A model generated the notes under the pieces. That model did not search any database. It saw only the letters and a list, made by a program, of their open reading frames with translations, and was not told the DNA's origin. 64,000 nt of DNA, from NCBI GenBank assembly GCA_041500125.1, contig JBGQLP010000004.1:9332-73331 (forward strand), read 5' to 3'. The position numbers and the translations under genes were made by a program. This stretch comes from Gemmatimonadota bacterium (GTDB lineage: Bacteria > Gemmatimonadota > Gemmatimonadetes > Gemmatimonadales > GWC2-71-9). Shown here in pieces: positions 5,332 through 52,294 of this stretch; the stretch's first letter is position 1, and each line of letters begins with the position of its first letter.

Positions 5332-6708
5332 TTGGAGATGACCACCGAACTCCGAAAGCCTCCACCACTGAGGACCCCGCTCGTGGCCAAGGAAAGCCTC
5401 ACACTCACCGACAACCGCACCGGCAAATCCTACGAGGTGCCGATCGCGGACGGTACCATCAAGGCCACCGATCTGCGCCAGATCAAGGTGTCGGAGGACG
5501 ACTTCGGCATGATGACCTACGACCCCGCGTTCATGAACACCGCCGCCTGCCGCAGCGCCATCACCTTCATCGACGGCGACAAGGGAATCCTGCGCTATCG
5601 CGGATACCCGATCGAGCAGCTGGCCGAGCGGGCGTCGTTCCTGGAGGTGGCGTATCTGCTGTGCGAAGGCGAGCTGCCCAATCGGGAGCAGCTGACGAAG
5701 TGGGAAGAGGAGATCAAGTTCCACACCTACGTCCACACCAATATCACCAAGTTCCTCGAGGGCTTCCGCTACGACGCCCACCCCATGGGCATGCTGCTCG
5801 GCGTGGTCGGCGCGCTCTCCACCTTCTATCCCGACGCGAAGAACATCCACGATCCGGCCAACCGCTACCTCCAGAGGGTCCGGCTCCTGGCCAAGCTGCC
5901 CACCATCGCGGCGTTCGCCTTCCGCCACTCTCGCGGGCTGCCCTACGAGTTCCCCCGGAACGACCTGGATTACATCGGGAACTTCGTGAACATGACATTC
6001 AGCATCGGGGGGCGGCACCAGCCCAACAAGGTGCTGCAGCGCGCGCTGGAGATTCTACTCATCCTTCACGCCGACCACGAGCAAAACTGCTCCACCAGCG
6101 CGGTGCGCGCCGTCGGCTCGTCTCACGTAGACCCCTTCTCCGCGGTGAGCGCGGGGATTGCCGCGCTGTACGGCCCGCTGCACGGGGGAGCCAACGAGGC
6201 CGTGCTCCAGATGCTGGACGAGATCGGCGAGGTGAAGAACATCCCGGCCTTCATCGAGAAGGTGAAAGGCGGCTCCGACCGGCTGATGGGGTTCGGGCAC
6301 CGGGTGTACAAGTCGTACGATCCCCGGGCCAAGCTCATAAAAAAGGTAGCCTACGACGTCTTCGAGCAGACCGGGCTCAGTCCCAAGCTGGAGATCGCGC
6401 TCGAGCTGGAGCGCATCGCGCTGGAAGATGAGTACTTCATCAAGCGGAAGCTCTATCCCAACGTGGATTTTTATTCGGGCTTGATCTACCAGGCCATGGG
6501 ATACCCGACCGACTACTTCACCGTGCTCTTTGCCATCGGGCGGGCGCCCGGCTGGCTGGCGCAGTGGGAGGAGATGCTGCTGGACAAGGACCAGAAGATC
6601 GCGCGCCCCCGGCAGATCTACGTGGGGTCGGAGGAACGGCCGTATCTACCGGTCGAGAAACGAGGAGATAGACGCAAAGTCGAGAGGGAGAGAGTCAGCA
6701 AACGGTGA
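5332..6708 (+). CDS. gltA: Citrate synthase (type II)
   Basis: 458 aa. Motifs GYPIEQLAE, GPLHGGANEAV, GFGHRVYKSYDPRA. TTG 5332 or ATG 5338 as start. 14-aa basic C-terminal extension running into the repeat element. Confidence 0.95.
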   Translation: MEMTTELRKPPPLRTPLVAKESLTLTDNRTGKSYEVPIADGTIKATDLRQIKVSEDDFGMMTYDPAFMNTAACRSAITFIDGDKGILRYRGYPIEQLAERASFLEVAYLLCEGELPNREQLTKWEEEIKFHTYVHTNITKFLEGFRYDAHPMGMLLGVVGALSTFYPDAKNIHDPANRYLQRVRLLAKLPTIAAFAFRHSRGLPYEFPRNDLDYIGNFVNMTFSIGGRHQPNKVLQRALEILLILHADHEQNCSTSAVRAVGSSHVDPFSAVSAGIAALYGPLHGGANEAVLQMLDEIGEVKNIPAFIEKVKGGSDRLMGFGHRVYKSYDPRAKLIKKVAYDVFEQTGLSPKLEIALELERIALEDEYFIKRKLYPNVDFYSGLIYQAMGYPTDYFTVLFAIGRAPGWLAQWEEMLLDKDQKIARPRQIYVGSEERPYLPVEKRGDRRKVERERVSKR

Positions 6709-6783
6709 GAAGTGAGAGGTAAGAAGTGAGAGGGGAGAACCAGCCGCGTCTCCCTCTTACCTCTTACCTCTTACCTCTTACCC
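6705..6783. repeat. Family A heptad palindrome (GTRAGAR arm / CTCTTAC arm), copy 1
   Basis: Left arm GGTGAGAAGTGAGAGGTAAGAAGTGAGAGGGGAGA, apex cagccgcg, right arm TCTCCCTCTTACCTCTTACCTCTTACCTCTTACCC. Fills the whole gltA/speA convergent gap and contains both stop codons. Confidence 0.75.
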
Positions 6784-8757
6784 TTTTCTCTCCCCGCTCA
6801 CGCTCTCTTCTACCGGAACATCGCCTTCCAAGTAGGTGTAGCCTTCGAGTCCTGCGACATAATCCGCGATAAAGCTGTTGGCCTCCTGCCGGCTCAGATC
6901 CTTGGCGTTACCGACCTTGCGGCGGAATGTCGCCAGGAGATCGGAGGCGCTGAACTGCACGTAGTTGAGCACCTCGGTCACCGTGTCCCCATGGACCAGA
7001 TCGGTGACTTCGTAGCCGTGCTCGGTGAGCCGGACGTGCACCGCATTGGTGTCGCCGAAGAGGTTGTGCAGGTCGCCCAGAATCTCCTGGTAGGCGCCGG
7101 TGAGGAAGATGCCGAGGATGTACGGCTGGCCTTCATCCACCGGATGCAGCTCCAGCGAGGGCTTGCCCTTGCGGCCGCCGGTGAAGCGATCGATGACTCC
7201 GTCCGAGTCGCAGGTGACGTCCTGGAGCGTGCCCCGGCGGGTGGGAGGCTCGTTCAGCCGGTGGATGGGCATGATGGGAAAGAGCTGATCGATGGCCCAG
7301 TTGTCCGGCAGCGACTGGAAGACCGAGAAGTTGCAGAAGTAGCGGTCCACCAGGGCCGACTCGATGTGGTTCACGATCTCGGGGAACGAGGTCTTGTCCT
7401 CGCCCATGGCGTTGGAAATGGCGTTCAAGGTGACCAGGTAGAACTGATCCGCGTCCGCCTTGTCCCGGAGGGAGAAGACCCCGCTGGCGAAATATTCCTG
7501 GGCCCGCTCCTTGGCGAACACGACGTCGTGGAAGACCTCCTCGATCCGGTCCTGGGTGAGACCCTCCAGATTCTCCGCCATCTCGACCAGGAGTGGGTGG
7601 GGCTCTTCCCGTAACTTCGGCGCTATGGGCTCGACCTGGGACTCGACGTCGATGACGTTGATCAGCAGCAGCGAATGGTGGGCGGTCAGCGCGCGGCCCG
7701 ATTCCGAGATGATGTGCGGCATCGGCAGCTCCTCGGTCCGGCACACCGAGCCGAGGGTGTACACCACGTCGTTGGCGTATTCCCGCATCGAATAGTTCAC
7801 GCTGGCGGGACGGGTCGAGCGGGAACCCTCGTAGTCCACGCCCAGTCCTCCACCGACGTCCACATGGGTGATGTCGAATCCCATGTTCCGGAGCTCGGCG
7901 TAGTAGCGGCCGATCTCTTCCAGCCCCGCCTTGACGTAGCGGATGTCGGTGATCTGGCTGCCCAGGTGGAAGTGAACCAGCTTGAGGATGTCCTTCCGGT
8001 CCAGACGGTCGAGCCGGTCGAGGAGCTTCATCAGTTCGACCGAGTCCAGTCCGAACTTGGACCGTTCCCCGCCGCTCTTGGCCCAGCGGCCCGAGCCTTC
8101 GGTTGCCAGTTTGATGCGCACCCCAGCGGTCGGCTTGACGTTCATCTCGTCGGCCACCTTGAGCAGGACCTCCAGCTCGCTGAGCTGCTCCAGGACGATC
8201 ATCACGGTGTGCCCCAGCTTCTGGCCCATCAGGGCCAGCCGCATGAACTCCTCGTCCTTGTATCCGTTGCAGACGATGAGATGGTTGGTTCCCTCGTTGA
8301 GGCCAAGCACGGCCTGCAGCTCCGGCTTGCTCCCGCACTCGAGGCCCACCCCGTGCGGGGCGCCGAACTCCACGATCTCCTGCATCACGTGCCGCTGCTG
8401 GTTCACCTTCACCGGGTACACCGTGGTGTAGGTGCCCTCATAGCCGAACTCCTTGATGGCGTTGCTGAACTCGGTGGCGAGCGCCTGGATCCGGGAGCGG
8501 AGGATGTCGGAGAAGCGGAGCAGGAGCGGCAGTCCGACTCCCTGGGCATGGAGGTCCATGGCCAGGTGGTAGAGATCGAGGCCGCGCTTCCGGTTCGCGT
8601 CGGGATGAACGGTGACGTGACCCTCGGGGTTGACCCGGAAATAGCCCAGGCCCCACCCGCTCATGTTGTAGAGCTTCTCGGCGTCCTTGGTGGTCCAAGT
8701 GGGCGGGGCAACGGTCGTGGCGATGGTGGATCTCCTGGAGGGAAGGCGAAGGGGCAA
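6778..8757 (-). CDS. speA: Biosynthetic arginine decarboxylase
   Basis: 659 aa. N-terminal WTTKDAEKLYNMSGWGLGYFRVNPEGHVTVHP and PLP-Lys context TTVYPVKVNQQ. The ORF-track start is TTG 8757. There is an AGGAGA further in, but no canonical start codon follows it, so the start is uncertain. Confidence 0.9.
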   Translation of the reverse strand: MPLRLPSRRSTIATTVAPPTWTTKDAEKLYNMSGWGLGYFRVNPEGHVTVHPDANRKRGLDLYHLAMDLHAQGVGLPLLLRFSDILRSRIQALATEFSNAIKEFGYEGTYTTVYPVKVNQQRHVMQEIVEFGAPHGVGLECGSKPELQAVLGLNEGTNHLIVCNGYKDEEFMRLALMGQKLGHTVMIVLEQLSELEVLLKVADEMNVKPTAGVRIKLATEGSGRWAKSGGERSKFGLDSVELMKLLDRLDRLDRKDILKLVHFHLGSQITDIRYVKAGLEEIGRYYAELRNMGFDITHVDVGGGLGVDYEGSRSTRPASVNYSMREYANDVVYTLGSVCRTEELPMPHIISESGRALTAHHSLLLINVIDVESQVEPIAPKLREEPHPLLVEMAENLEGLTQDRIEEVFHDVVFAKERAQEYFASGVFSLRDKADADQFYLVTLNAISNAMGEDKTSFPEIVNHIESALVDRYFCNFSVFQSLPDNWAIDQLFPIMPIHRLNEPPTRRGTLQDVTCDSDGVIDRFTGGRKGKPSLELHPVDEGQPYILGIFLTGAYQEILGDLHNLFGDTNAVHVRLTEHGYEVTDLVHGDTVTEVLNYVQFSASDLLATFRRKVGNAKDLSRQEANSFIADYVAGLEGYTYLEGDVPVEESVSGERKG

Positions 8758-16828: not shown

Positions 16829-16926
16829 GCGGGGCAGACGGGCAGCGGGGCAGTTCGCCCTGTTGAGCGCTGTCTTTGTGTGCGCTATTGCCGCCCCGCC
16901 GCCCCGCTGCCTCCTCTGCCCCGCTG
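16826..16926. repeat. Family B GGGGCAG-arm palindromic element, copy 1
   Basis: Starts on the queE stop: TAGGCGGGGCAGACGGGCAGCGGGGCAG. Core contains CTGTCTTTGTGTGCGC. C-rich arm CCGCCCCGCCGCCCCGCTGCCTCCTCTGCCCCGCTG ends 3 nt before the next start codon. Confidence 0.65.
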
Positions 16927-23363: not shown

Positions 23364-23447
23364 GGTCTAGGGTCTAGCCGTCTAGGGCCTAGCAGTAGTA
23401 GACGTCTTTATTTAGACGTCCTTCCTAGACGTTTGACCTAGACCCTA
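23364..23447. repeat. Family C CTAG-rich heptad palindrome
   Basis: GGTCTAG GGTCTAG CCGTCTAG GGCCTAG CAGTAG TAGACGTC ... TAGACGTCC ... CTAGACG ... CCTAGACCCTA. Six CTAG in about 85 nt. The infA stop (TAG 23447..23445) is the first unit of the minus-strand arm. Confidence 0.6.
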
Positions 23448-23663
23448 TTTGTGTCTATAAATCACCCGTCCTCGCGTCAGATCATACGGCGACAACACCA
23501 CGCTCACCCGGTCGCCCTCCAATACCCGAATCTTGAACTTGCTCATCTTTCCGGCCGCATAGGCCAGAATCTCGTGCCCGTTCTCCAACATCACCCGGTA
23601 GTTCCGGTCAGGCAAGACCTCGGTCACCACCCCTTCCATCTCGATTCCTTCTTCTTTGGCCAT
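23445..23663 (-). CDS. infA: Translation initiation factor IF-1
   Basis: ORF 23445..23678 trimmed to ATG 23663. [40 protein letters not shown]... 72 aa, S1-like fold. Confidence 0.95.
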
Positions 23664-27258: not shown

Positions 27259-29198
27259 GAAATGGTCTCGCCCTGCCCCGCCGACCCGGCGCGGCCTTGC
27301 CGATGGTAGAGGTACGCCAGCAGCAGAAAGACCAGACCGAGAATGAAGACGGAGCCCACCCGATAGAGCGCGTCGAGCGACGAAAGGTCGAAGACGAGGA
27401 CCTTCACCACAGCGAGTCCGGCCACCCCGAGTCCGGCAACCCGGGCCGGCTTGAGCTCACGGCGGAAGCCCACCACGACGAGCGCGGCCGCGAACACCAG
27501 CCACCAGGCGCTCACCGCCAGACCCGCGGAAAGGCTGGCGGTCTGGGCCGAGAGGGACCGCAGCACGAAGTAGCGCTGGATCTCGCCGGTGACGCCGAAG
27601 AGCACCATCGCACCGGCCACCACCCACAGGATGGCCTGCACCACGGGGCCAGGACCGGATTCCGAGGTCACCTTCCAGAGTTTTCCAGCCAACGCGACGG
27701 TCACCGCTGCCGCGCCCCAGAGCGCCAGCGCCCAGGATCCCACGAAGGCGGGATCGGCGGGCGTCCGCTGCGCGACCGCGCCGGTGAAGAGCTGGTCGAG
27801 GGCGGCCCACAGCGTGGCGACCGCGTACCAGCGGCCATCCTCTCGATTGAGCCGGTGATCGAGCGCCGCCCAGAGCACGGCGAGCGCCAGCAGCGCCCAC
27901 ACCCGTTCGATGCCGTCCCAGTGCCGCCACACGGCAATGCCCAGCGCGGCCGCCGCGACGACCGCGAAGATCGGGCGGGGCCGCTGGTATCCCGCAATCA
28001 GGTACGGCACGGCCACGATCAGCGAAACCATGCCCTCATGCCCGTCGAACCATGGCGGCGCCAGGCCATGCACCGCCCATCCGAGCAGAAATGGCGTCAA
28101 GAAAAAGTAGACCGCCTCACCCAGGGACCAAGTCGGCACACTGGAATTCGGCAGTCGGAAGATCGGCAGGGTCAAATCGGAGCGCAGCGCGAACCACCAG
28201 ACCGGCGCGGCCAGCACGATCCCGCCGAGCAGGACGGCCCAGGGGCTTCCGAGCTGGTGACTAGCGGCGCTCACGAAAGTCCAGCCACCGGCAAACGACA
28301 GGAACCTGGTCTCCGGCCAGCGCTCCCGGAGGCCGACGTGGATGCCGGCACTCCCCCCGAGCACGCCGTACAGCAGAACCCCCCAGGCGGAGCCACGGTC
28401 CGCCGCGCCGACGTAGGCCACGCCGAAGAAGCTCAGCGCGACGATGAACATGGCCAGGCGCCAGCGGCGGCGTGCGGCCACGAAGCCGAGCCCAGCGGCC
28501 ATGCACGCGAGGTAGAGAAGAAGCAGATCGGCGTCGGCCTGGTTCCGGCCCAGCAGCAGCGGAGCGAAGAACGCGCCCAGGGCTGCCGTGGTCCCCAGCG
28601 CCTCGACGTCGATGGCATAGGCGATCATTGCCAGGGCGACGGAGACCAACGCCAATCCGATGATGCCGGTGGTGGGCGGCAGGACCCCGTACAAGCGCGC
28701 CGCGGCCCAGACACTCAGATAGATGATGGCGGCGCCGCAGCCGATCAGGGCCGCGCCATAAGTGCGGTAGCGCGGATGGAGCCGCCAGCCGACCGCTCCC
28801 ACGATGAAGCCGGAGATGGCTCCGCCGATACAGCGCATCAGGGGTGAGATCCAGCCCCGATCGAACGACAGCCGGAGGAGATAGCCGGCGGCGAGGATGA
28901 GGGCGATCACGCCGACAGCCAGGAGGACGCGCTGGCCGATCCATTGTTCGGAGGAGAGAAGCGGGGCCGCGGGGCGGAGGGGCGGCGGGGCAGATGTGGG
29001 CGGAGCGACGGAACGGGGTGGCGGGGCAGGTGACGACGGAATTGGCGTTGCTGTTTGCGTCACCGCTCCCCGGCTTTCCTGCGGCGCCGCATGCTGCCCC
29101 ACCACCCCGCTGCCCCGCTGCCCCACCAGCGCCCCCACCAATTCCTCGAGCTGGGTCACGCGCCTCTCAAGGCGCTCGATCCGGGCGTCCTCGCTCAT
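27255..29198 (-). CDS. DUF2339-like polytopic membrane protein
   Basis: 647 aa. N-terminal coiled coil (RIERLERRVTQLEELV), Pro-rich linker, then roughly 18 hydrophobic segments. This architecture is typical of DUF2339. Confidence 0.75.
   Translation of the reverse strand: MSEDARIERLERRVTQLEELVGALVGQRGSGVVGQHAAPQESRGAVTQTATPIPSSPAPPPRSVAPPTSAPPPLRPAAPLLSSEQWIGQRVLLAVGVIALILAAGYLLRLSFDRGWISPLMRCIGGAISGFIVGAVGWRLHPRYRTYGAALIGCGAAIIYLSVWAAARLYGVLPPTTGIIGLALVSVALAMIAYAIDVEALGTTAALGAFFAPLLLGRNQADADLLLLYLACMAAGLGFVAARRRWRLAMFIVALSFFGVAYVGAADRGSAWGVLLYGVLGGSAGIHVGLRERWPETRFLSFAGGWTFVSAASHQLGSPWAVLLGGIVLAAPVWWFALRSDLTLPIFRLPNSSVPTWSLGEAVYFFLTPFLLGWAVHGLAPPWFDGHEGMVSLIVAVPYLIAGYQRPRPIFAVVAAAALGIAVWRHWDGIERVWALLALAVLWAALDHRLNREDGRWYAVATLWAALDQLFTGAVAQRTPADPAFVGSWALALWGAAAVTVALAGKLWKVTSESGPGPVVQAILWVVAGAMVLFGVTGEIQRYFVLRSLSAQTASLSAGLAVSAWWLVFAAALVVVGFRRELKPARVAGLGVAGLAVVKVLVFDLSSLDALYRVGSVFILGLVFLLLAYLYHRQGRAGSAGQGETIS
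28971..29126. repeat. Family B-like GGGGCAG-arm element embedded in-frame in the DUF2339 gene
   Basis: Plus-strand G-rich arm 28971-29030 (GCGGGGCCGCGGGGCGGAGGGGCGGCGGGGCAG...GGTGGCGGGGCAGG). Core with CTGTTTGCGTCACC. C-rich arm 29093-29126 (CTGCCCCACCACCCCGCTGCCCCGCTGCCCCACC). Same polarity as the intergenic copies. Confidence 0.45.
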
Positions 29199-37616: not shown

Positions 37617-37943
37617 TTACCTGGGCTTAGCCGCGGCGCAGCGATCGCAGAGGCAGAGGCGAAGCAGCTGCTCAAAAGTGTAGATGCCGGTCCCGTGGCC
37701 GTCGCTCCAGTTCACCCGGAGCCCATAGGCGCCAACCAACTGGAGCGACAGTGGACGGATGTCGGATGGCACGGCTGCGGGATCGAGGAGGGGGCGGCCG
37801 CTCATTTCTTCCACACAGCCGGCGCAGGGGCACGCCAGGCGGAGCCCGCGGGCTGGGAAGAAGCCCTCGTGCTCCTGCTGATCCCATTCGATGAGGATGC
37901 CGTCGTCCCGGCGGTTGATGGCGTGGGGGATGGGGTTGTTCAT
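37617..37943 (-). CDS. DUF971 domain protein
   Basis: 108 aa. [34 protein letters not shown]...[15 protein letters not shown] matches the DUF971 (gamma-BBH N-terminal-like) pattern. Confidence 0.8.
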
Positions 37944-38042
37944 GGCTATGGGCTATTGGCTATGGGCAAATCAAAACAAGAAACCCCCCGGATCACCGGA
38001 GGGTTTCCGACCATCGGAGCAGCCAACAGCGAATAGCCAAGA
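37944..38042. repeat. Family D GGCTATG-heptad inverted repeat flanking a canonical terminator
   Basis: Arm 1 is GGCTATG GGCTATT GGCTATG GGC (37944-37967), abutting the DUF971 start codon. Arm 2 is CAGCCAACAGCGAATAGCCAAG (38020-38042), just after the sigma gene stop. Confidence 0.5.
37968..38009 (-). terminator. Intrinsic terminator of the sigma-factor gene
   Basis: Minus-strand RNA: GGAAACCCUCCGG-uga-UCCGGGGGGUUUC followed by UUGUUUUGAUUU. Confidence 0.7.
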
Positions 38043-42790: not shown

Positions 42791-42813
42791 GAAGTCTAGA
42801 GTCTAGACCCTCA
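42791..42813. repeat. Family C mini-copy (GTCTAGA GTCTAGA CCCTCA)
   Basis: On the minus strand the stop TGA (42813..42811) is followed directly by GGGTCTAGACTCTAGAC. Compare TAGGGTCTAGG after infA. Confidence 0.4.
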
Positions 42814-43591: not shown

Positions 43592-43655
43592 GGGAGCCAG
43601 GAGTCAGGAGCTAGGAGTCGGGAGCCGCCTGCTGGCTCCTAGCTGCCGACTCGCA
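43592..43655. repeat. Family E: five tandem RGGAGYY heptads plus partial complementary arm
   Basis: GGGAGCC AGGAGTC AGGAGCT AGGAGTC GGGAGCC (43592-43626), then gcctgct GGCTCC TAGCTGC CGACTC. Lies in the divergent gap upstream of thrA. Confidence 0.5.
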
Positions 43656-46194: not shown

Positions 46195-47156
46195 AGCCAA
46201 AGGAGCAGAGCTTTACCGCGTTCGCCCCTGGTGGGGTGGGTAACATCGGGCCCGGACTCGACATCCTCGGACTCGCGCTCGCCGGCGAGGGCGACACGGT
46301 GCGGGCGGAGTGGAGTGGAACACCCGGCATTCAGATCCGCGACCCGGGACATCGCGATCTCCCTCGTGATCCGGCCCGTCACACCTCGGGCCTCGCCGCG
46401 CGCGCGGTCCTGGACAAGGTGGATGACCGTCGCCATCTGGAGCGCGGTATTGCGCTCACGGTGCGGAAGGGCCTGCCGCTCTCCGGTGGCCAGGGCGGAA
46501 GCGCCGCCTCTGCCGTCGCGGGCGCGGTGGCGGTGAATGCCCTGTTGGGGGAGCCGTTGGACCGGCTGGAGCTGGTCAACGCGGCTCTCGCGGCTGAAGA
46601 GAGGGTCGCTGGCCGGCACGCCGACAACATCGCGCCAGCATTATTCGGCGGCATTGTCCTCATTCGCTCGATGGAGCCGCTCGACCTGGTCCCGCTTCCG
46701 GTCCCCGCCGAGCTGCTGGTGGTGGTGGCACGGCCCAACCAGCGAATGCGAACCGCTGACGCGAGAGCAGTCCTGCCGGCAGCGGTCTCCCGTGCGGTGG
46801 CGCTCCATCAGGCCGCGCAGGTCGGCGCCCTGATTGCCGCCCTCGCCAGCAACGATTACGAGTTGCTCGGCCGCGCGATCGACGACCGCATCGCGGAGCC
46901 AGTGCGGGCCGGGCTGCTCCCCGGATTTCGCGAGGCAAAGCTGGCCGCGCTGGCGGCCGGAGCACTCGGCAGCTCGATTTCCGGCAGCGGGCCCACCGCC
47001 TTTGCCTTGGTGCGGGGACCGGATGTCGCCAAGAAGGTGGCGGAGGCTATGGCGGCAGCCTACGCCGCCTCGGGCCAGCGAAGCGAGGTACGGGTGACAA
47101 CGGTGGACCGCGAAGGGGCTCGGCTGGTTCCCGACCTGGAGGGAGCACATCGGTGA
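46191..47156 (+). CDS. thrB: Homoserine kinase
   Basis: GHMP kinase motif GLPLSGGQGGSAASAVAG. Overlapping start and stop codons with thrA and thrC. Confidence 0.9.
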   Translation: MKPKEQSFTAFAPGGVGNIGPGLDILGLALAGEGDTVRAEWSGTPGIQIRDPGHRDLPRDPARHTSGLAARAVLDKVDDRRHLERGIALTVRKGLPLSGGQGGSAASAVAGAVAVNALLGEPLDRLELVNAALAAEERVAGRHADNIAPALFGGIVLIRSMEPLDLVPLPVPAELLVVVARPNQRMRTADARAVLPAAVSRAVALHQAAQVGALIAALASNDYELLGRAIDDRIAEPVRAGLLPGFREAKLAALAAGALGSSISGSGPTAFALVRGPDVAKKVAEAMAAAYAASGQRSEVRVTTVDREGARLVPDLEGAHR

Positions 47157-48448
47157 GATTCCAGACCCAGCGCCCGGCGAGCTGGCAGACCTGCATCGCC
47201 TGCGGGAACGAGGTGGTGGAGACCGATCCTCATCCCCGCTGCGGCCTGTGCGGCGGCCTACTGGAGATCCATCACCGGCCTCCGGCCATCACCGCCCAGG
47301 AGCTGATCCAGCGCTTCACCGAGCGGCGCGGGGGGCCACCGGGAGCAACTGCATCCGGCGTGTGGCGCTTCCGCGAGATCGTGTTGCCCTCGGCAGACGC
47401 AGTGGTGTCGCACCCCGAGGGAAACACGCCGCTGCTGCACCGGGTGGCGCTCGACCGCTGGGTGGGGCTCGACCACCTGCTGCTCAAGCACGAGGGCCAC
47501 AATCCGACCGGCTCCTTCAAAGACCGCGGCATGACGGTCGGAGTGACTCAAGCGCTCCGGATCGGCGCCACGGCAGTGGCTTGTGCCTCGACCGGTAACA
47601 CCTCCGCGTCGTTGGCGGCCTATGCCTCGCAGGCAGGGCTGCCGGCGCTGGTGTTGGTGCCGCTGGAGGGAGTCGCCTCCGGCAAGCTGGCGCAGGCCCT
47701 CGCCTATCGGGCTCGAACCATTCTGGTACGGGGCGATTTCGACGATTGCCAGCGCCTGGTAGAACAGGCCAGCAACGAGCTGGGAGTCTATCTGCTGAAC
47801 TCGATCAATCCGTTTCGGATCGAGGGCCAGAAGACCATCGTACTGGAGCTGTTGCAACAACTCTCCTGGGACCCGCCCGACTGGATCGTGCTCCCCGCCG
47901 GCAACCTGGGGAATACGGCCGCATTCGGGAAGGCGCTACGCGAGGCGCAGGAGTGGGGATTGATCTCGCGACGCCCCCGCCTTGCGGCGGTGCAGGCATC
48001 GGGTGCCGCTCCCTTCGTTCGCAGCTTCGAGCAGGGCTTTGCCCAGCGGCACCGGGTCAAGGCGGACACAGTGGCCACGGCGATCAAGATCGGTAACCCG
48101 GCCTCGTACGATCGAGCGGTGACCGCGATTCAGGAGACCAACGGAGTCGTGCTCTCGGTCCATGACGCCGAGCTGCTCGAGGCCAAGGCGGCGATCGATG
48201 CCTCGGGGGTGGGATGCGAGCCGGCCAGCGCGGCGGCAGTAGCCGGGGTGCGGCAGCTCGTCACCCAGGGCCTGATCCAGCCATCCGATCGAGTGGTGGC
48301 GATCCTGACCGGACACATTCTCAAGGACCCGGGTCTCCTGCTCCGGTACCATCAGGAGATGGAGCCTCCTCCGCCGGGGGCCAACCGACCCATCGAGATC
48401 GAGGCCGACCTGGCGGAGGTCGAGCGGGTGCTGCGCCATAAGGGGTGA
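47153..48448 (+). CDS. thrC: Threonine synthase
   Basis: 431 aa. PLP-Lys motif GSFKDRGMTVG. N-terminal Cys4 zinc ribbon. Confidence 0.95.
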   Translation: MRFQTQRPASWQTCIACGNEVVETDPHPRCGLCGGLLEIHHRPPAITAQELIQRFTERRGGPPGATASGVWRFREIVLPSADAVVSHPEGNTPLLHRVALDRWVGLDHLLLKHEGHNPTGSFKDRGMTVGVTQALRIGATAVACASTGNTSASLAAYASQAGLPALVLVPLEGVASGKLAQALAYRARTILVRGDFDDCQRLVEQASNELGVYLLNSINPFRIEGQKTIVLELLQQLSWDPPDWIVLPAGNLGNTAAFGKALREAQEWGLISRRPRLAAVQASGAAPFVRSFEQGFAQRHRVKADTVATAIKIGNPASYDRAVTAIQETNGVVLSVHDAELLEAKAAIDASGVGCEPASAAAVAGVRQLVTQGLIQPSDRVVAILTGHILKDPGLLLRYHQEMEPPPPGANRPIEIEADLAEVERVLRHKG

Positions 48449-48540
48449 GAAGTGAGAGGTGAGAAGTAAGAGGTTCAGCTACGAACCAGGCCGCTCACCT
48501 CTCAGCTCTCACTCTTACCTCTTACCTCTTACCTCTTACC
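48444..48540. repeat. Family A heptad palindrome, copy 2
   Basis: GGTGAGAAGTGAGAGGTGAGAAGTAAGAGG ... CTCACCTCTCAGCTCTCACTCTTACCTCTTACCTCTTACCTCTTACC. Contains the thrC stop (TGA 48446-48448) and the convergent gene's stop (TAA 48538..48536). Confidence 0.75.
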
Positions 48541-49786
48541 GCTCTTTCGACACCTTCCAGATCTTCTGGTTCTGATCGGCCGAGATGTAGAGCGATCCAT
48601 CGGGGGCCACAGCGAGCCCGCTGGCGCGGAGATCCGTAGGCCCCTCCTTAGATGTCGCGAAGGTCGAGTACTCCCCGGAAGGCCGTCCATCCTTGAACGG
48701 CACGAACACGACGCGGTAGCCCGCCTGGGGCAGTGGGGCGCGATTCCACGATCCATGGAACGCCACGAAGAGCCCGCCCTGGTATTGCGGCCCGAACTGA
48801 TCGCCGTTGTAGAACGCGAGCGCCAGAGGGGCCCAGTGGCCGGGGAAGGCCAGCAGCGGGTTCTTGGCTGAGGCGCAACGACCGACCTTCTGTCCGTCGC
48901 CGCCGTACTCGGGGGCGAGCACCTTCTTCTTGTAGTCGTTGCTGTAGTAGCAGTAGGGCCACCCGAAATCATCGCCTCCGCCCACCTTCACCAGCTCCTC
49001 CGCCGGATTGTCGGCGTTAGCCTTGTCGCTGAAGCCCCAGTTGTCCCCCAGCTGATCGCGGCCGTGCACTGCGGCGTACAGGTCTTCACTCCCGGTATTG
49101 GTCGTGAGCGCCAGCGGATTCCTCAGCCCCGTGGCAAACCGACGTCCGTCTTCGAACCGCTGGCCCACCCGGTCGGCAGAGAACTGCCAGATCCCCGCCC
49201 GCCGCTCCAGCTCTCGACACGGGTCCAGGCCGGGTGAGTGATCCCGGCGATCGGACCTCTGACAGCTGTTGCTGGCCGATCCGACGCTCACGTACATCTC
49301 CCCACCGGGACGAAAGGCCAGACTCTTGGCCTTGTGGTTGCCATCGTCGGGAAGACCGCTGACCACTGTTTCGCCCTGGCCTTCCGGTACCAGCTTACCG
49401 GGTGTGAGTCGATATCGCAGGATCCGATCGTTCAACGCGAGATAGAGATACCCGTTCCGAAGCTGCACGTCGTTGGCCCCGCCGGGTCCAAAGCTCGCGC
49501 GCTGGTCGGGCTTCCCGTCGCCATTGGTGTCGCGCAGTGCGAGCACACCATTCGCGCCGCTGGCAATGGCCGCGTAGAGATCGCCGTTGGGAGCCACCGT
49601 CAGCTGACGCACCGCGCCGATGCCGCTCGCCACCACCGTCGCGCAAGCGCCTTGGGGGAGCACCAGCCCGCCGTTATCAGGATCGCATCCCGAGGGAGTC
49701 TGAGAGGGAGAAATCGTCATCCAGCCGAGGATCAGCGGCGTCATTGCTAGTGTCGCGGCTCGGAGAATGGGATATGAAGACGCCAT
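48536..49786 (-). CDS. PQQ-dependent sugar (sorbosone/glucose) dehydrogenase-like beta-propeller protein, secreted
   Basis: 416 aa. Signal peptide. GLRNPLAL..., GRDQLGDNWGF, DDFGWPYCYY are typical of the SGDH family. Confidence 0.8.
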   Translation of the reverse strand: MASSYPILRAATLAMTPLILGWMTISPSQTPSGCDPDNGGLVLPQGACATVVASGIGAVRQLTVAPNGDLYAAIASGANGVLALRDTNGDGKPDQRASFGPGGANDVQLRNGYLYLALNDRILRYRLTPGKLVPEGQGETVVSGLPDDGNHKAKSLAFRPGGEMYVSVGSASNSCQRSDRRDHSPGLDPCRELERRAGIWQFSADRVGQRFEDGRRFATGLRNPLALTTNTGSEDLYAAVHGRDQLGDNWGFSDKANADNPAEELVKVGGGDDFGWPYCYYSNDYKKKVLAPEYGGDGQKVGRCASAKNPLLAFPGHWAPLALAFYNGDQFGPQYQGGLFVAFHGSWNRAPLPQAGYRVVFVPFKDGRPSGEYSTFATSKEGPTDLRASGLAVAPDGSLYISADQNQKIWKVSKER

Positions 49787-50019
49787 GAAGAGAACCGTTC
49801 TTGGAGTTATGAGAGGGAGCCGGAGCCCCGGACCACCGCTGGAAGATACAGTGGCCCGGCCTTTGCCAGAGGGGCCGCGGAACCCCCCGCAGGGGTTTTC
49901 AGAGGGGAAATGTGGTTTTGCCTATTGCAACTGGGCGGCGTCTGTTTACTGTTGGACACGGTAGTTCTGCTAGTTCCCGAGGCACCACACGGTTCTCACC
50001 CATTTTTGGGAGACTCGCG

Positions 50020-50385
50020 ATGGCCACCAAGAGGAGAAAGACTGCCGGTAGGAAATCAGCCAAGAAGCGCGCGAAGCGGCCAGCTGCACGGAAGAAGACC
50101 GCGAAGAGAGCCAAGAGGAAGTCCACCACCAAGCGCAAACCGAATCCCGCGTTCATGAGGCCGTTACAACCCAGCTCGACGCTCGCCAACGTAATCGGCA
50201 GCAGCCCCATGCCCCGGACCCAGGTCATCAGCAAGCTCTGGGCGTACATCAAGAGAAACGGACTGCAGGACTCGAAGAATCGCCGGGCCATCAATGCCGA
50301 CGAGAAGCTCCGCCCGTTGTTCGGGGGCCGGAGTCAGGTCACCATGTTCGACCTGGCAAAGATCGCGAACAAGAACCTCAGCTAG
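50020..50385 (+). CDS. SWIB/MDM2 domain protein with Lys/Arg-rich N-terminal tail
   Basis: ORF 49912..50385 trimmed to ATG 50020. Tail MATKRRKTAGRKSAKKRAKRPAARKKTAKRAKRKSTTKRK, then SWIB core MPRTQVISKLWAYIKRNGLQDSKNRRAINADEKLRPLFGG. Confidence 0.85.
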   Translation: MATKRRKTAGRKSAKKRAKRPAARKKTAKRAKRKSTTKRKPNPAFMRPLQPSSTLANVIGSSPMPRTQVISKLWAYIKRNGLQDSKNRRAINADEKLRPLFGGRSQVTMFDLAKIANKNLS

Positions 50386-50410
50386 ACCCGGCACTGCCGG
50401 CGCAGTACCG

Positions 50411-50442
50411 AGGGCGCTCCCGCTGGGGCGCCCTTTTTATTT
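50411..50442 (+). terminator. Intrinsic terminator after the SWIB gene
   Basis: AGGGCGC-tcccgctgg-GGCGCCCT followed by TTTTTATTT. Confidence 0.6.
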
Positions 50443-50472
50443 GAAGGAGGCCCCCTCTATCTTCCTCGCCCT

Positions 50473-52146
<1,674 letters not shown>

Positions 52147-52149
<3 letters not shown>

Positions 52150-52284
52150 GCGGGGCAGCGGGGCGGCGGGGCAGGTTCCTTCTGAGCCAAGCACCTGTCA
52201 TCCCGAGCTTAGCGGGACCACTTCGAGGCTCTCACTGTCTTGGTGTGCACCGTCTACCGCCCCGCTGCCCCGCTGCCCACCTGC
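52147..52284. repeat. Family B GGGGCAG-arm palindromic element, copy 2
   Basis: Starts on the ettA stop: TAGGCGGGGCAGCGGGGCGGCGGGGCAGG. About 80-nt core containing CTGTCTTGGTGTGCAC. C-rich arm CCGCCCCGCTGCCCCGCTGCCCACCTGC. Confidence 0.65.
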
Positions 52285-52294
52285 GCCGCTATTA

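Follow-up and report, generated by a model that had tools for sequence, protein, structure and literature searches.

A heptanucleotide-repeat hairpin between the convergent stop codons of thrC and a GSDH-family gene in Gemmatimonadota

The thrC/GSDH junction and its heptad element

The window analysed here is a stretch of 64,000 nucleotides (nt) from a Gemmatimonadota bacterium (assembly GCA_041500125.1, contig JBGQLP010000004.1). Within it, the threonine synthase gene thrC and a convergent gene of the glucose/sorbosone dehydrogenase (GSDH) family, of the pyrroloquinoline quinone (PQQ) type, face each other tail to tail, and the gap between their two stop codons is filled by a real heptamer-repeat hairpin (Table 1). 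The element, of about 100 nt, is a quasi-palindrome of heptanucleotides (heptads) composed of a 5' purine arm with the consensus TRAGARG, a short centre and a complementary 3' arm with the consensus YCTCTYA. The original prediction, made from the sequence alone, had described it as the second copy of one family (family A) located between thrC and a PQQ-type dehydrogenase gene. The direct reading of 48444-48540 agrees with that description, the Pfam families PALP and GSDH support both gene names, and the list of open reading frames (ORF) places both stops in the arms.

Tandem Repeats Finder detects arrays with periods of 7 and 14 nt at 48439-48474 and 48497-48540, and the arms count five and 4-7 heptad units. 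Each of the five heptads of the 5' arm contains an in-register TGA or TAA, and the pyrimidine strand of the units contains no stop codons. Since every purine unit carries a stop and 7 = 1 mod 3, no reading frame stays open across three consecutive units. The element displays at least three head-to-tail 7-nt units in non-coding DNA, near or overlapping the ORF ends, variable among relatives and belonging to a period that is over-represented, and is therefore an intergenic heptanucleotide simple sequence repeat (SSR). It is not an assembly artefact, because GCA_041476605.1 and two Logan assemblies have contigs that encode an unchanged thrC protein and carry the element with 100% identity.

Table 1. 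Features of the thrC/GSDH junction and of the related element in the window (L-numbers denote compared loci; MFE, minimum free energy).
Feature	Coordinates	Strand	Evidence or remark
thrC, threonine synthase gene	47153..48448	+	ORF list; Pfam PALP E=2.5e-67; named threonine synthase by several sources; gene call in L001
5' purine arm, five heptads (TAAGGGG TGAGAAG TGAGAGG TGAGAAG TAAGAGG)	48439..48473	+	array n=5, stop offset +7
Full imperfect stem-loop, 38 predicted pairs	48441..48543	.	MFE -50.3 kcal/mol on the plus strand, -49.2 kcal/mol on the minus strand
Stop codon of thrC (TGA), in the second in-register heptad	48446..48448	+	same codon position is the stop in L207 (TAA) and L210 (TGA)
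Centre (loop) of the palindrome	48474..48493	.	overlaps the motif GAACCAGGCCGC (48483-48494)
3' pyrimidine arm (CCTCTTA type): CTCACCT CTCAGCT CTCACT, then (CTTACCT)x3, then CTTACC	48494..48540	+	minus strand gives purine heptads with TGA/TAA
Stop codon of the GSDH gene (TAA, 48538..48536)	48536..48538	-	homologous to the TTA of L210 and L207
Convergent glucose/sorbosone dehydrogenase-family (PQQ-type) gene	48536..49786	-	ORF list; Pfam GSDH E=1.1e-13; TrAA12/GSDH in gene calls
Copy 1, same family, between the citrate synthase and arginine decarboxylase genes	6704..6782	.	stops TGA 6706-6708 and TAA 6780..6778; 38 predicted pairs

The first heptad of the 5' arm, TAAGGGG (48439-48445), lies exactly 7 nt 5' of the thrC TGA and differs from the unit by one mismatch. 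Its TAA is in register with the array and is read out of frame by thrC (cAT AAG GGG TGA), so that the last three codons (CAT AAG GGG) and the stop fall within the first two heptads. TAAGGGG qualifies as a unit by the standard applied to the other heptads of the arm, which places the thrC stop in the second heptad, and the earlier statement that no heptads lie inside the ORFs does not hold. The GSDH and arginine decarboxylase gene tails are purine-rich as well and resemble decayed heptads. Among 120 thrC homologues, the C-termini are conserved up to ...ERVL and then become variable (HKG, HKA, KM, QR, GER, QKRER, GVNGER and others).

Copy 1 is flanked by a citrate synthase gene and an arginine decarboxylase gene. 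Its arrays, also of periods 7 and 14, cover 6704-6739 and 6753-6782, and the ORFs 5332-6708 (+) and 6778-8757 (-) end in it. The two copies are 42 kb apart and share exactly 17 nt of the left arm and 29 nt of the right arm (48512-48540 = 6754-6782). The left-arm identity had been noted correctly, and the right-arm identity is also exact, with 29 nt in place of the 28 nt given at first. When at most 3 mismatches are allowed, a 16-mer taken from the right arm has 11 matches in the window, all inside copies 1 and 2 (mean of 0.15 in shuffles). The centres of both copies are unlike in length and sequence, apart from the common motif GAACCAG[CG]CCG, which the centre of copy 2 carries as GAACCAGGCCGC and which is also present in one element of L098, from another Gemmatimonadales metagenome-assembled genome (MAG). 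Among 235 occurrences of the motif in 3.3 Mb, these are the only three elements that contain it. In this small sample of sequences, the common motif is suggestive of a shared descent of the elements.

The citrate synthase stop at copy 1 is native, since the position of the C-terminal end is common to the homologues listed: 112 of the 120 end in ...VERERVSKR*, and the remaining 8 terminate there too, with -STR. The locus L213, with a citrate synthase 95% identical, has an orthologous family A element with differing unit counts; two units are translated as part of its arginine decarboxylase gene, whose stop is in the third (tail EEVRGKT*). The spacer of L212 (97% identical citrate synthase) is a different composite heptad palindrome of 166 nt. 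The loci L213 and L207 derive from one metagenome assembly and may represent one population with copy 1 and without copy 2.

The folding of the two copies is similar. Copy 1 reaches a minimum free energy of -49.6 and -50.0 kcal/mol on the two strands, and the z-scores of both copies on both strands vary between -4.1 and -6.5. A strand asymmetry through G-U pairs was considered and rejected, as folding is equally good on both strands. The scan of the whole window against Rfam at gathering thresholds gave no match.

Orthologous spacers and related arrays

Under NCBI naming, the proteins with an identity of 84-97% belong to Gemmatimonadales or Gemmatimonadota. In relatives with a 95-97% identical thrC, the DNA between the two convergent stops forms a graded series that ranges from 3 to 87 nt. 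The shortest spacers are those of L210 (TGA-CCC-TTA, 3 nt) and L207 (TAA-GAG-TTA, 3 nt), in which one or no heptad separates the two stops, and of L126 (TGA-GAGG-TCA), where three left-arm heptads are present and two of them are read through by thrC (tail RGER*). The original prediction had suggested that empty sites be sought in related strains, and these three loci, with convergent stops 3-4 nt apart, lack the element. They are followed by L208 with 13 nt (TAAGCGG TGAGCGG), L211 with 15 nt and the GSDH stop in the second unit, L125 with a mini-hairpin of 33 nt, L123 with an unrelated hairpin of 53 nt, L209 with an 85-nt hairpin of another unit (TGAAGAG/TCTTCAC) and the GSDH stop in the third unit, and finally the window with 87 nt. 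The flanks of L210 align with those of the window up to both stops (...TGA on one side, TTACCGTTCCTTCGACACC versus TTACCGCTCTTTCGACACC on the other), and both proteins have the same length and tail. As the spacer otherwise measures 3-4 nt, anything inside it is therefore bounded by both stops, and the terminal units take in the native stop codons.

Among 30 convergent thrC/GSDH loci, 12 have a spacer of at most 15 nt or overlapping genes, and about 12 contain a clearly stable hairpin. Many lineages keep some stable stem in this spacer despite unrelated sequences. A non-heptad hairpin (GGTGACACGCG ... CGCGTGTCACC) is located at 11291-11343 of L123 and at the same position in L128, L131 and L134 (thrC identity of 83-97%); its 3' arm encodes the GSDH C-terminus, and it may correspond to an older state of the spacer. 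In L181 (1357-1485), the thrC orthologue reads through a stop-less 5' arm of GGTTACT units and the loop and stops in the 3' arm of CCAATAA units. The read-through adds about 37 residues and shows the consequence of an outward-facing strand without stops.

The heptad arrays are widespread in the phylum. In 796 kb of Gemmatimonadota DNA, chosen only for the presence of a thrC or gltA relative and not for repeats, the arrays with at least three near-perfect units number 30 for period 7, 3 for period 6, 6 for period 8 and 1 for period 9, and shuffled sequences give 0 for period 7. Neighbouring arrays separated by at most 160 nt are complementary in 11 of 19 cases and direct in none, the proportion of complementary pairs being 2.2% among random pairs. 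The palindromes found 3' of thrC are built of many units (GTGAACA, GGTAAGC, GTGAAGG, GCGAAAG, GTGACGA, GGAGCAG, GGGACTA, CCGTTGG and GGTTACT). Of the inverted TRAGARG pairs, 29 have the stop-bearing purine units in the 5' arm and a single one has them in the 3' arm (p=6e-8), so that the stops face the incoming genes. The gene context of the arrays (tandem 9, convergent 8, 'intragenic' 7 and divergent 6) was obtained with a home-made gene caller based on third-position G+C content (GC3), which is too noisy to establish or dismiss a 3'-end preference. Two copies are present in the window; other Gemmatimonadales MAGs have several each, four loci coming from a GEMM-2 MAG, for example. A similarity confined to the two loci of the window, which the original prediction had named as a refutation, is rejected, as numerous loci of other Gemmatimonadales MAGs contain TRAGARG hairpins. 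The element is shown to be one member of a large, fast-turning-over population of palindromes with 7-nt units in Gemmatimonadota.

The CCTCTTA unit extends beyond this phylum. An exact scan for (CCTCTTA)3CC, with one genome per species, matched more than 119 stretches from Bacteroidota, Cyanobacteria, Clostridia, Gemmatimonadota, Planctomycetota and others. In low-GC genomes, most of the arrays have a single arm and many stand next to other heptad arrays, and loci of high-GC Gemmatimonadales and Planctomycetota, such as L028, L030, L033, L098 and L101, have a hairpin architecture like that of the window. As the unit occurs in many unrelated phyla and mostly in one-armed form, its identity across phyla is not evidence of homology. 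The recurrence of CCTCTTA looks, from the sequences, like a common outcome of heptamer slippage and not of shared ancestry. These arrays reach at least 16 copies (L004-L122; Bacteroidota, Cyanobacteria, Clostridia, Halomonas, Planctomycetota, Omnitrophota and others) and often stand beside CCTATTA, CTTCTTA and CCTCTCA arrays.

Several other repeats are found in the window. Three palindromes of 8-nt units (GCGGGGCA / TGCCCCGC) are located at 16829-16924, 28961-29124 and 52147-52290. Two of them begin with TAG followed by GCGGGGCAG, where the TAG is the stop of the upstream ORF (e.g. ORF 50473-52149); the orthologous spacer has a variant unit GCGGGGAA in L125 and none in L123. The heptads GGTCTAG and the complementary CTAGACC form a palindrome at 23364-23455 and 42793-42807, with TAG on both strands of the unit. 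Another family, with units that lack stops, is placed at 43593-43650 and consists of GGAGCCA/GGAGTCA heptads followed by the complementary TGGCTCC type. At 37944-37967, GGCTATG heptads abut the start codon of a minus-strand ORF (CAT 37941-37943), which is the position described for TAACTGA repeats. GCTATTG-type arrays are also present in divergent spacers of L123 (6386-6502) and L130.

Upstream of a SWIB-domain gene, a non-coding sequence of about 130 nt (49896-50032, +) is conserved near-verbatim, with the blocks TTGCCTATTGCAAC ... TACTGTT ... CACGGTAGTTCTGC ... GGCAC..CACGGTTCTCAC ... GGGAGACTCGCGATGGCC. It is also present in L123, L125-L128, L132, L135, L136, L139, L154, L159, L161, L167, L207 and L210, and its conservation extends over Gemmatimonadota with thrC proteins only 70-85% identical. 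The stretch has no Rfam match, and RNAalifold gives only a weak stem without compensatory changes. The stretch probably comprises a promoter and a conserved leader.

Stop codons, origin and possible role

The original prediction had argued for a precise relationship between the element boundary and the stop codon, as all four flanking genes were thought to stop on the outermost heptad. The relationship was examined at high-GC loci in arrays of at least 3 units with at most 1 mismatch to TRAGARG, entered by an ORF of at least 80 codons with codon-position G+C contents ordered as GC3>GC1>GC2. The stop falls in heptad 1, 2 or 3 in 10, 3 and 3 of the 16 arrays, an excess of heptad 1 over the uniform, frame-random model (p=0.016). 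This excess weakens (7, 2 and 3; p=0.066) once the four window arms, from which the hypothesis came, are removed. In 8 further rows the stop is 6-27 nt upstream of the array, one of them being an artefact (the inner array of the window's own right arm). A first, crude phase test on mixed loci (11/8/8) used an ORF-length criterion that is unreliable in high-GC DNA and was replaced by the GC3-validated test.

Counterexamples occur at the orthologous loci, since thrC stops in the third heptad in L126 and the GSDH gene stops in the third in L209 and in the second in L211. The coincidence of boundaries and stops above chance is consequently a tendency of arrays to begin at the stop, and not a rule; the precise form of the claim is lost. 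The alignment is best explained by nucleation in a near-zero spacer bounded by native stops, together with units whose stops act in any frame, and not by phase-locked insertion.

The best overall explanation, with a probability of roughly 0.55, is that of an optional stem-loop module grown or copied into the near-zero spacer between native stops. The array would nucleate at, or be copied into, this spacer and would subsequently grow and shrink by slipped-strand mispairing. The complementarity of the arms might be upheld by template switching at the quasi-palindrome, by selection or by a combination of the two. Short terminal homology (G-TGA-GAAG ... CTC-TTA-CC) could allow occasional copying from site to site, which would account for the arms and centre motif that copies 1 and 2 have in common. 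The stop would usually remain in the outermost unit and, after small frame changes, the next units would catch the ribosome. If transcribed, both messenger RNAs (mRNA) would end in one predicted stem-loop of about 38 bp. The most plausible role of the predicted stem would be that of an optional structure at the 3' end, which would hinder convergent read-through and attack by 3' exonucleases; the stable stems that many lineages keep in this spacer support such a role indirectly. The graded spacers, units that differ by lineage and the uniformity inside each arm favour local slippage. On the other hand, the identities of 17 and 29 nt and the shared centre motif suggest, at the level of sequence, an occasional transfer of copies between sites.

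Several observations weigh against this explanation. The exact identities and the centre motif, found 42 kb apart, are not predicted by independent slippage, and copying between sites would be needed to account for them. Each arm is more uniform inside than complementary to the other (TGAGAAG/TGAGAGG versus TAAGAGG), whereas strict arm templating predicts otherwise. The hairpin is dispensable at the thrC/GSDH locus, because 12 of the 30 loci have no room for a spacer hairpin. With regard to termination, a GC-rich stem-loop does lie directly 3' of the stop codon, as in a terminator, but no U run follows the stem, the next letters being GCTCTTTCG (plus strand) and CCTTATGG (minus strand). A canonical terminator with a stem and a T run was rejected, as the consensus scan did not flag the full element and flagged only a small inner minus-strand hairpin (48487..48472). 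A canonical intrinsic terminator is located at 50410-50445 (+), 3' of the SWIB gene, and consists of an 11-pair GC-rich stem followed by TTTTTATTT; the organism does therefore use U-tract terminators, unlike the heptad stems.

A neutral, mutation-driven origin is a serious rival, possible although the less probable account. The arrays would arise, as a by-product of heptamer slippage and of template switching at palindromes, in any non-coding DNA that tolerates them, the boundaries would be set by purifying selection on the ORFs alone, and no RNA role would be required. Of the 30 orthologous convergent loci, less than half contain the hairpin and 12 are almost without a spacer, and the states vary among relatives with 95-97% identical thrC, as such an origin would allow. 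Heptad arrays are also found immediately before start codons and in the (promoter-side) spacers of divergent genes, and the mostly one-armed recurrence of CCTCTTA in unrelated phyla is what a mutational process predicts. Less easily accommodated is the stable stem that many lineages keep despite unrelated sequence, of the L123 type in L123, L128, L131 and L134 and of heptad types elsewhere. The complementarity of the arms far above chance and the strand rule of 29 to 1 also count against neutrality, but both could be mechanistic instead of selected.

The original prediction favoured a mobile element, similar to a repetitive extragenic palindromic (REP) sequence, to a REP doublet forming a hairpin (REPIN) or to a miniature inverted-repeat transposable element (MITE), that inserts at or next to stop codons in fixed phase and carries its own terminal stops. 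Such an element is improbable. The exact identities over 42 kb, the centre motif shared with L098, the resemblance of the window, compared with L210, to a clean insertion between TGA and TTA, and the over-representation of heptad 1 as the stop position would all be accounted for. However, the target-site duplications that the original prediction proposed to look for are not visible at copy 1 or copy 2, where the flanks (AAACGG and CCCTTT, AAGGGG and CCGCTC, respectively) are not direct repeats and, if anything, prolong the palindrome. The centres of the two copies differ in length and sequence, the unit numbers vary between orthologous elements, and intermediates of one to three heptads and lineage-specific units are found at one site. 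At many loci the stop is placed in heptad 2 or 3, or 6-27 nt upstream of the array. The arms begin with GGTGAG or GGTAAG and do not show the GTAG-type REP signature. No transposase, including the REP-associated tyrosine transposase (RAYT), was seen in a Pfam scan that covered the four flanking ORFs only and included no search aimed at RAYT.

Somewhat less probable still is that heptamer palindromes with outward-facing stops are a dedicated, actively generated 3'-end module and not a passive result of slippage. In such a system, an enzyme or a termination-coupled process would build or copy heptamer palindromes at stop codons, as frame-independent stop cassettes and bidirectional RNA stems. If true, the excess of 7-nt repeats long noticed in the genomes of bacteria would be explained by a mechanism.

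The array is very unlikely to represent binding sites for a protein or for the ribosome (purine units resembling the Shine-Dalgarno (SD) sequence and pyrimidine units resembling its complement), or a G-quadruplex (G4): the purine units resemble the SD sequence minus one base (TAAGAGGT versus TAAGGAGGT), a resemblance of sequence only, but the CCTCTTA-type unit is common in Bacteroidota, in which SD pairing plays a small part. Published proposals regard heptamer repeats as sites of post-transcriptional regulators (PMC4679880) and as G4-formers (PMC4692102), but the longest G run in TGAGAAG, TGAGAGG and TAAGAGG is GG and the units thus lack the GGG tracts that a G4 motif requires.

Comparison with known repeat systems

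The REP sequences, bacterial interspersed mosaic elements (BIME) and REPIN are dispersed extragenic imperfect palindromes, often located at 3' ends or between convergent genes, that form stem-loops in the mRNA (PMC2817692, PMC3116915). REP sequences are single palindromes of 20-40 nt with a GTAG-type end and a partner RAYT transposase, whereas the window element consists of about 100 nt of tandem 7-nt units. Bidirectional intrinsic terminators also have a stable stem-loop that is common to both transcripts and follows both stops directly. Unlike them, the element has a 38-pair stem, lacks a U-tract on either strand and overlaps the stop codons. REP/REPIN, MITE and the canonical terminator each fail at least one defining feature.

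Heptamer repeats offer a closer comparison. The short tandemly repeated repetitive (STRR) heptanucleotides of heterocystous cyanobacteria, reportedly described by Mazel and co-workers in 1990, are said to be tandem and dispersed in non-coding DNA. They have mostly been described as one-armed fingerprinting arrays and are not known to be related to stop codons. The arrays considered here are likewise tandem and dispersed heptanucleotides, and arrays of the CCTCTTA type were found in Moorena, Anabaena, Richelia and Chamaesiphon loci. The STRR of Calothrix are mentioned in PMC4692102.

The TAACTGA direct repeats of Beggiatoaceae, Cyanobacteria and Bacteroidetes are placed a few nucleotides upstream of start codons, with one indirect repeat only, and have been proposed as sites of a translational regulator (MacGregor 2015, PMC4679880). 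They share with the present units a stop-containing heptamer, an intergenic location and a patchy distribution across distant phyla. The units of the window, in contrast, are inverted arms at two gene 3' ends.

The stop codon present in every unit means that a repeat of this kind can overlap gene ends at almost no protein cost. For genome annotation, the heptad arrays explain variable C-terminal tails of otherwise conserved proteins. The thrC/GSDH spacer also constitutes an unusually clean natural series, from no repeat to the full hairpin in near-identical strains, that can be used to follow the birth and growth of repeats. A general excess of heptamer SSR in bacteria is credited to Mrazek et al. 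2007 as cited in PMC4692102; it has been known since 2007 without an accepted explanation, and Gemmatimonadota are rich in its palindromic form.

The closest counterparts are the intergenic heptameric repeats GGGAATC of Xanthomonas and GGGGAYT of Nostoc, typically of about 4 units (Rehm et al. 2015, PMC4692102). Each Xanthomonas genome contains 70-75 convergent inverted pairs of GGGAATC that are able to form stem-loops. These repeats show a strong bias for positions adjoining or overlapping stop codons, with the G- and purine-rich strand being the sense strand 3' of ORFs, vary extensively in length and sequence between close relatives and are mostly transcribed (PMC4692102). The 7-nt unit, the intergenic and stop-proximal location, the inverted convergent pairs, the variability and an equal strand rule are all common to the window element. 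By analogy, the stops may not be the cause of this rule, as the stop-less GGGAATC repeats obey it equally. On the other hand, the units of the window differ, carry a stop each and belong to the phylum Gemmatimonadota, in which numerous unit families occur side by side and each pair has matching arms. As the window units lack G-tracts, the quadruplex reading of the Xanthomonas repeats is not transferable to them. With these differences, the window element is included in a known class of fast-changing, poorly understood bacterial heptamer repeats.

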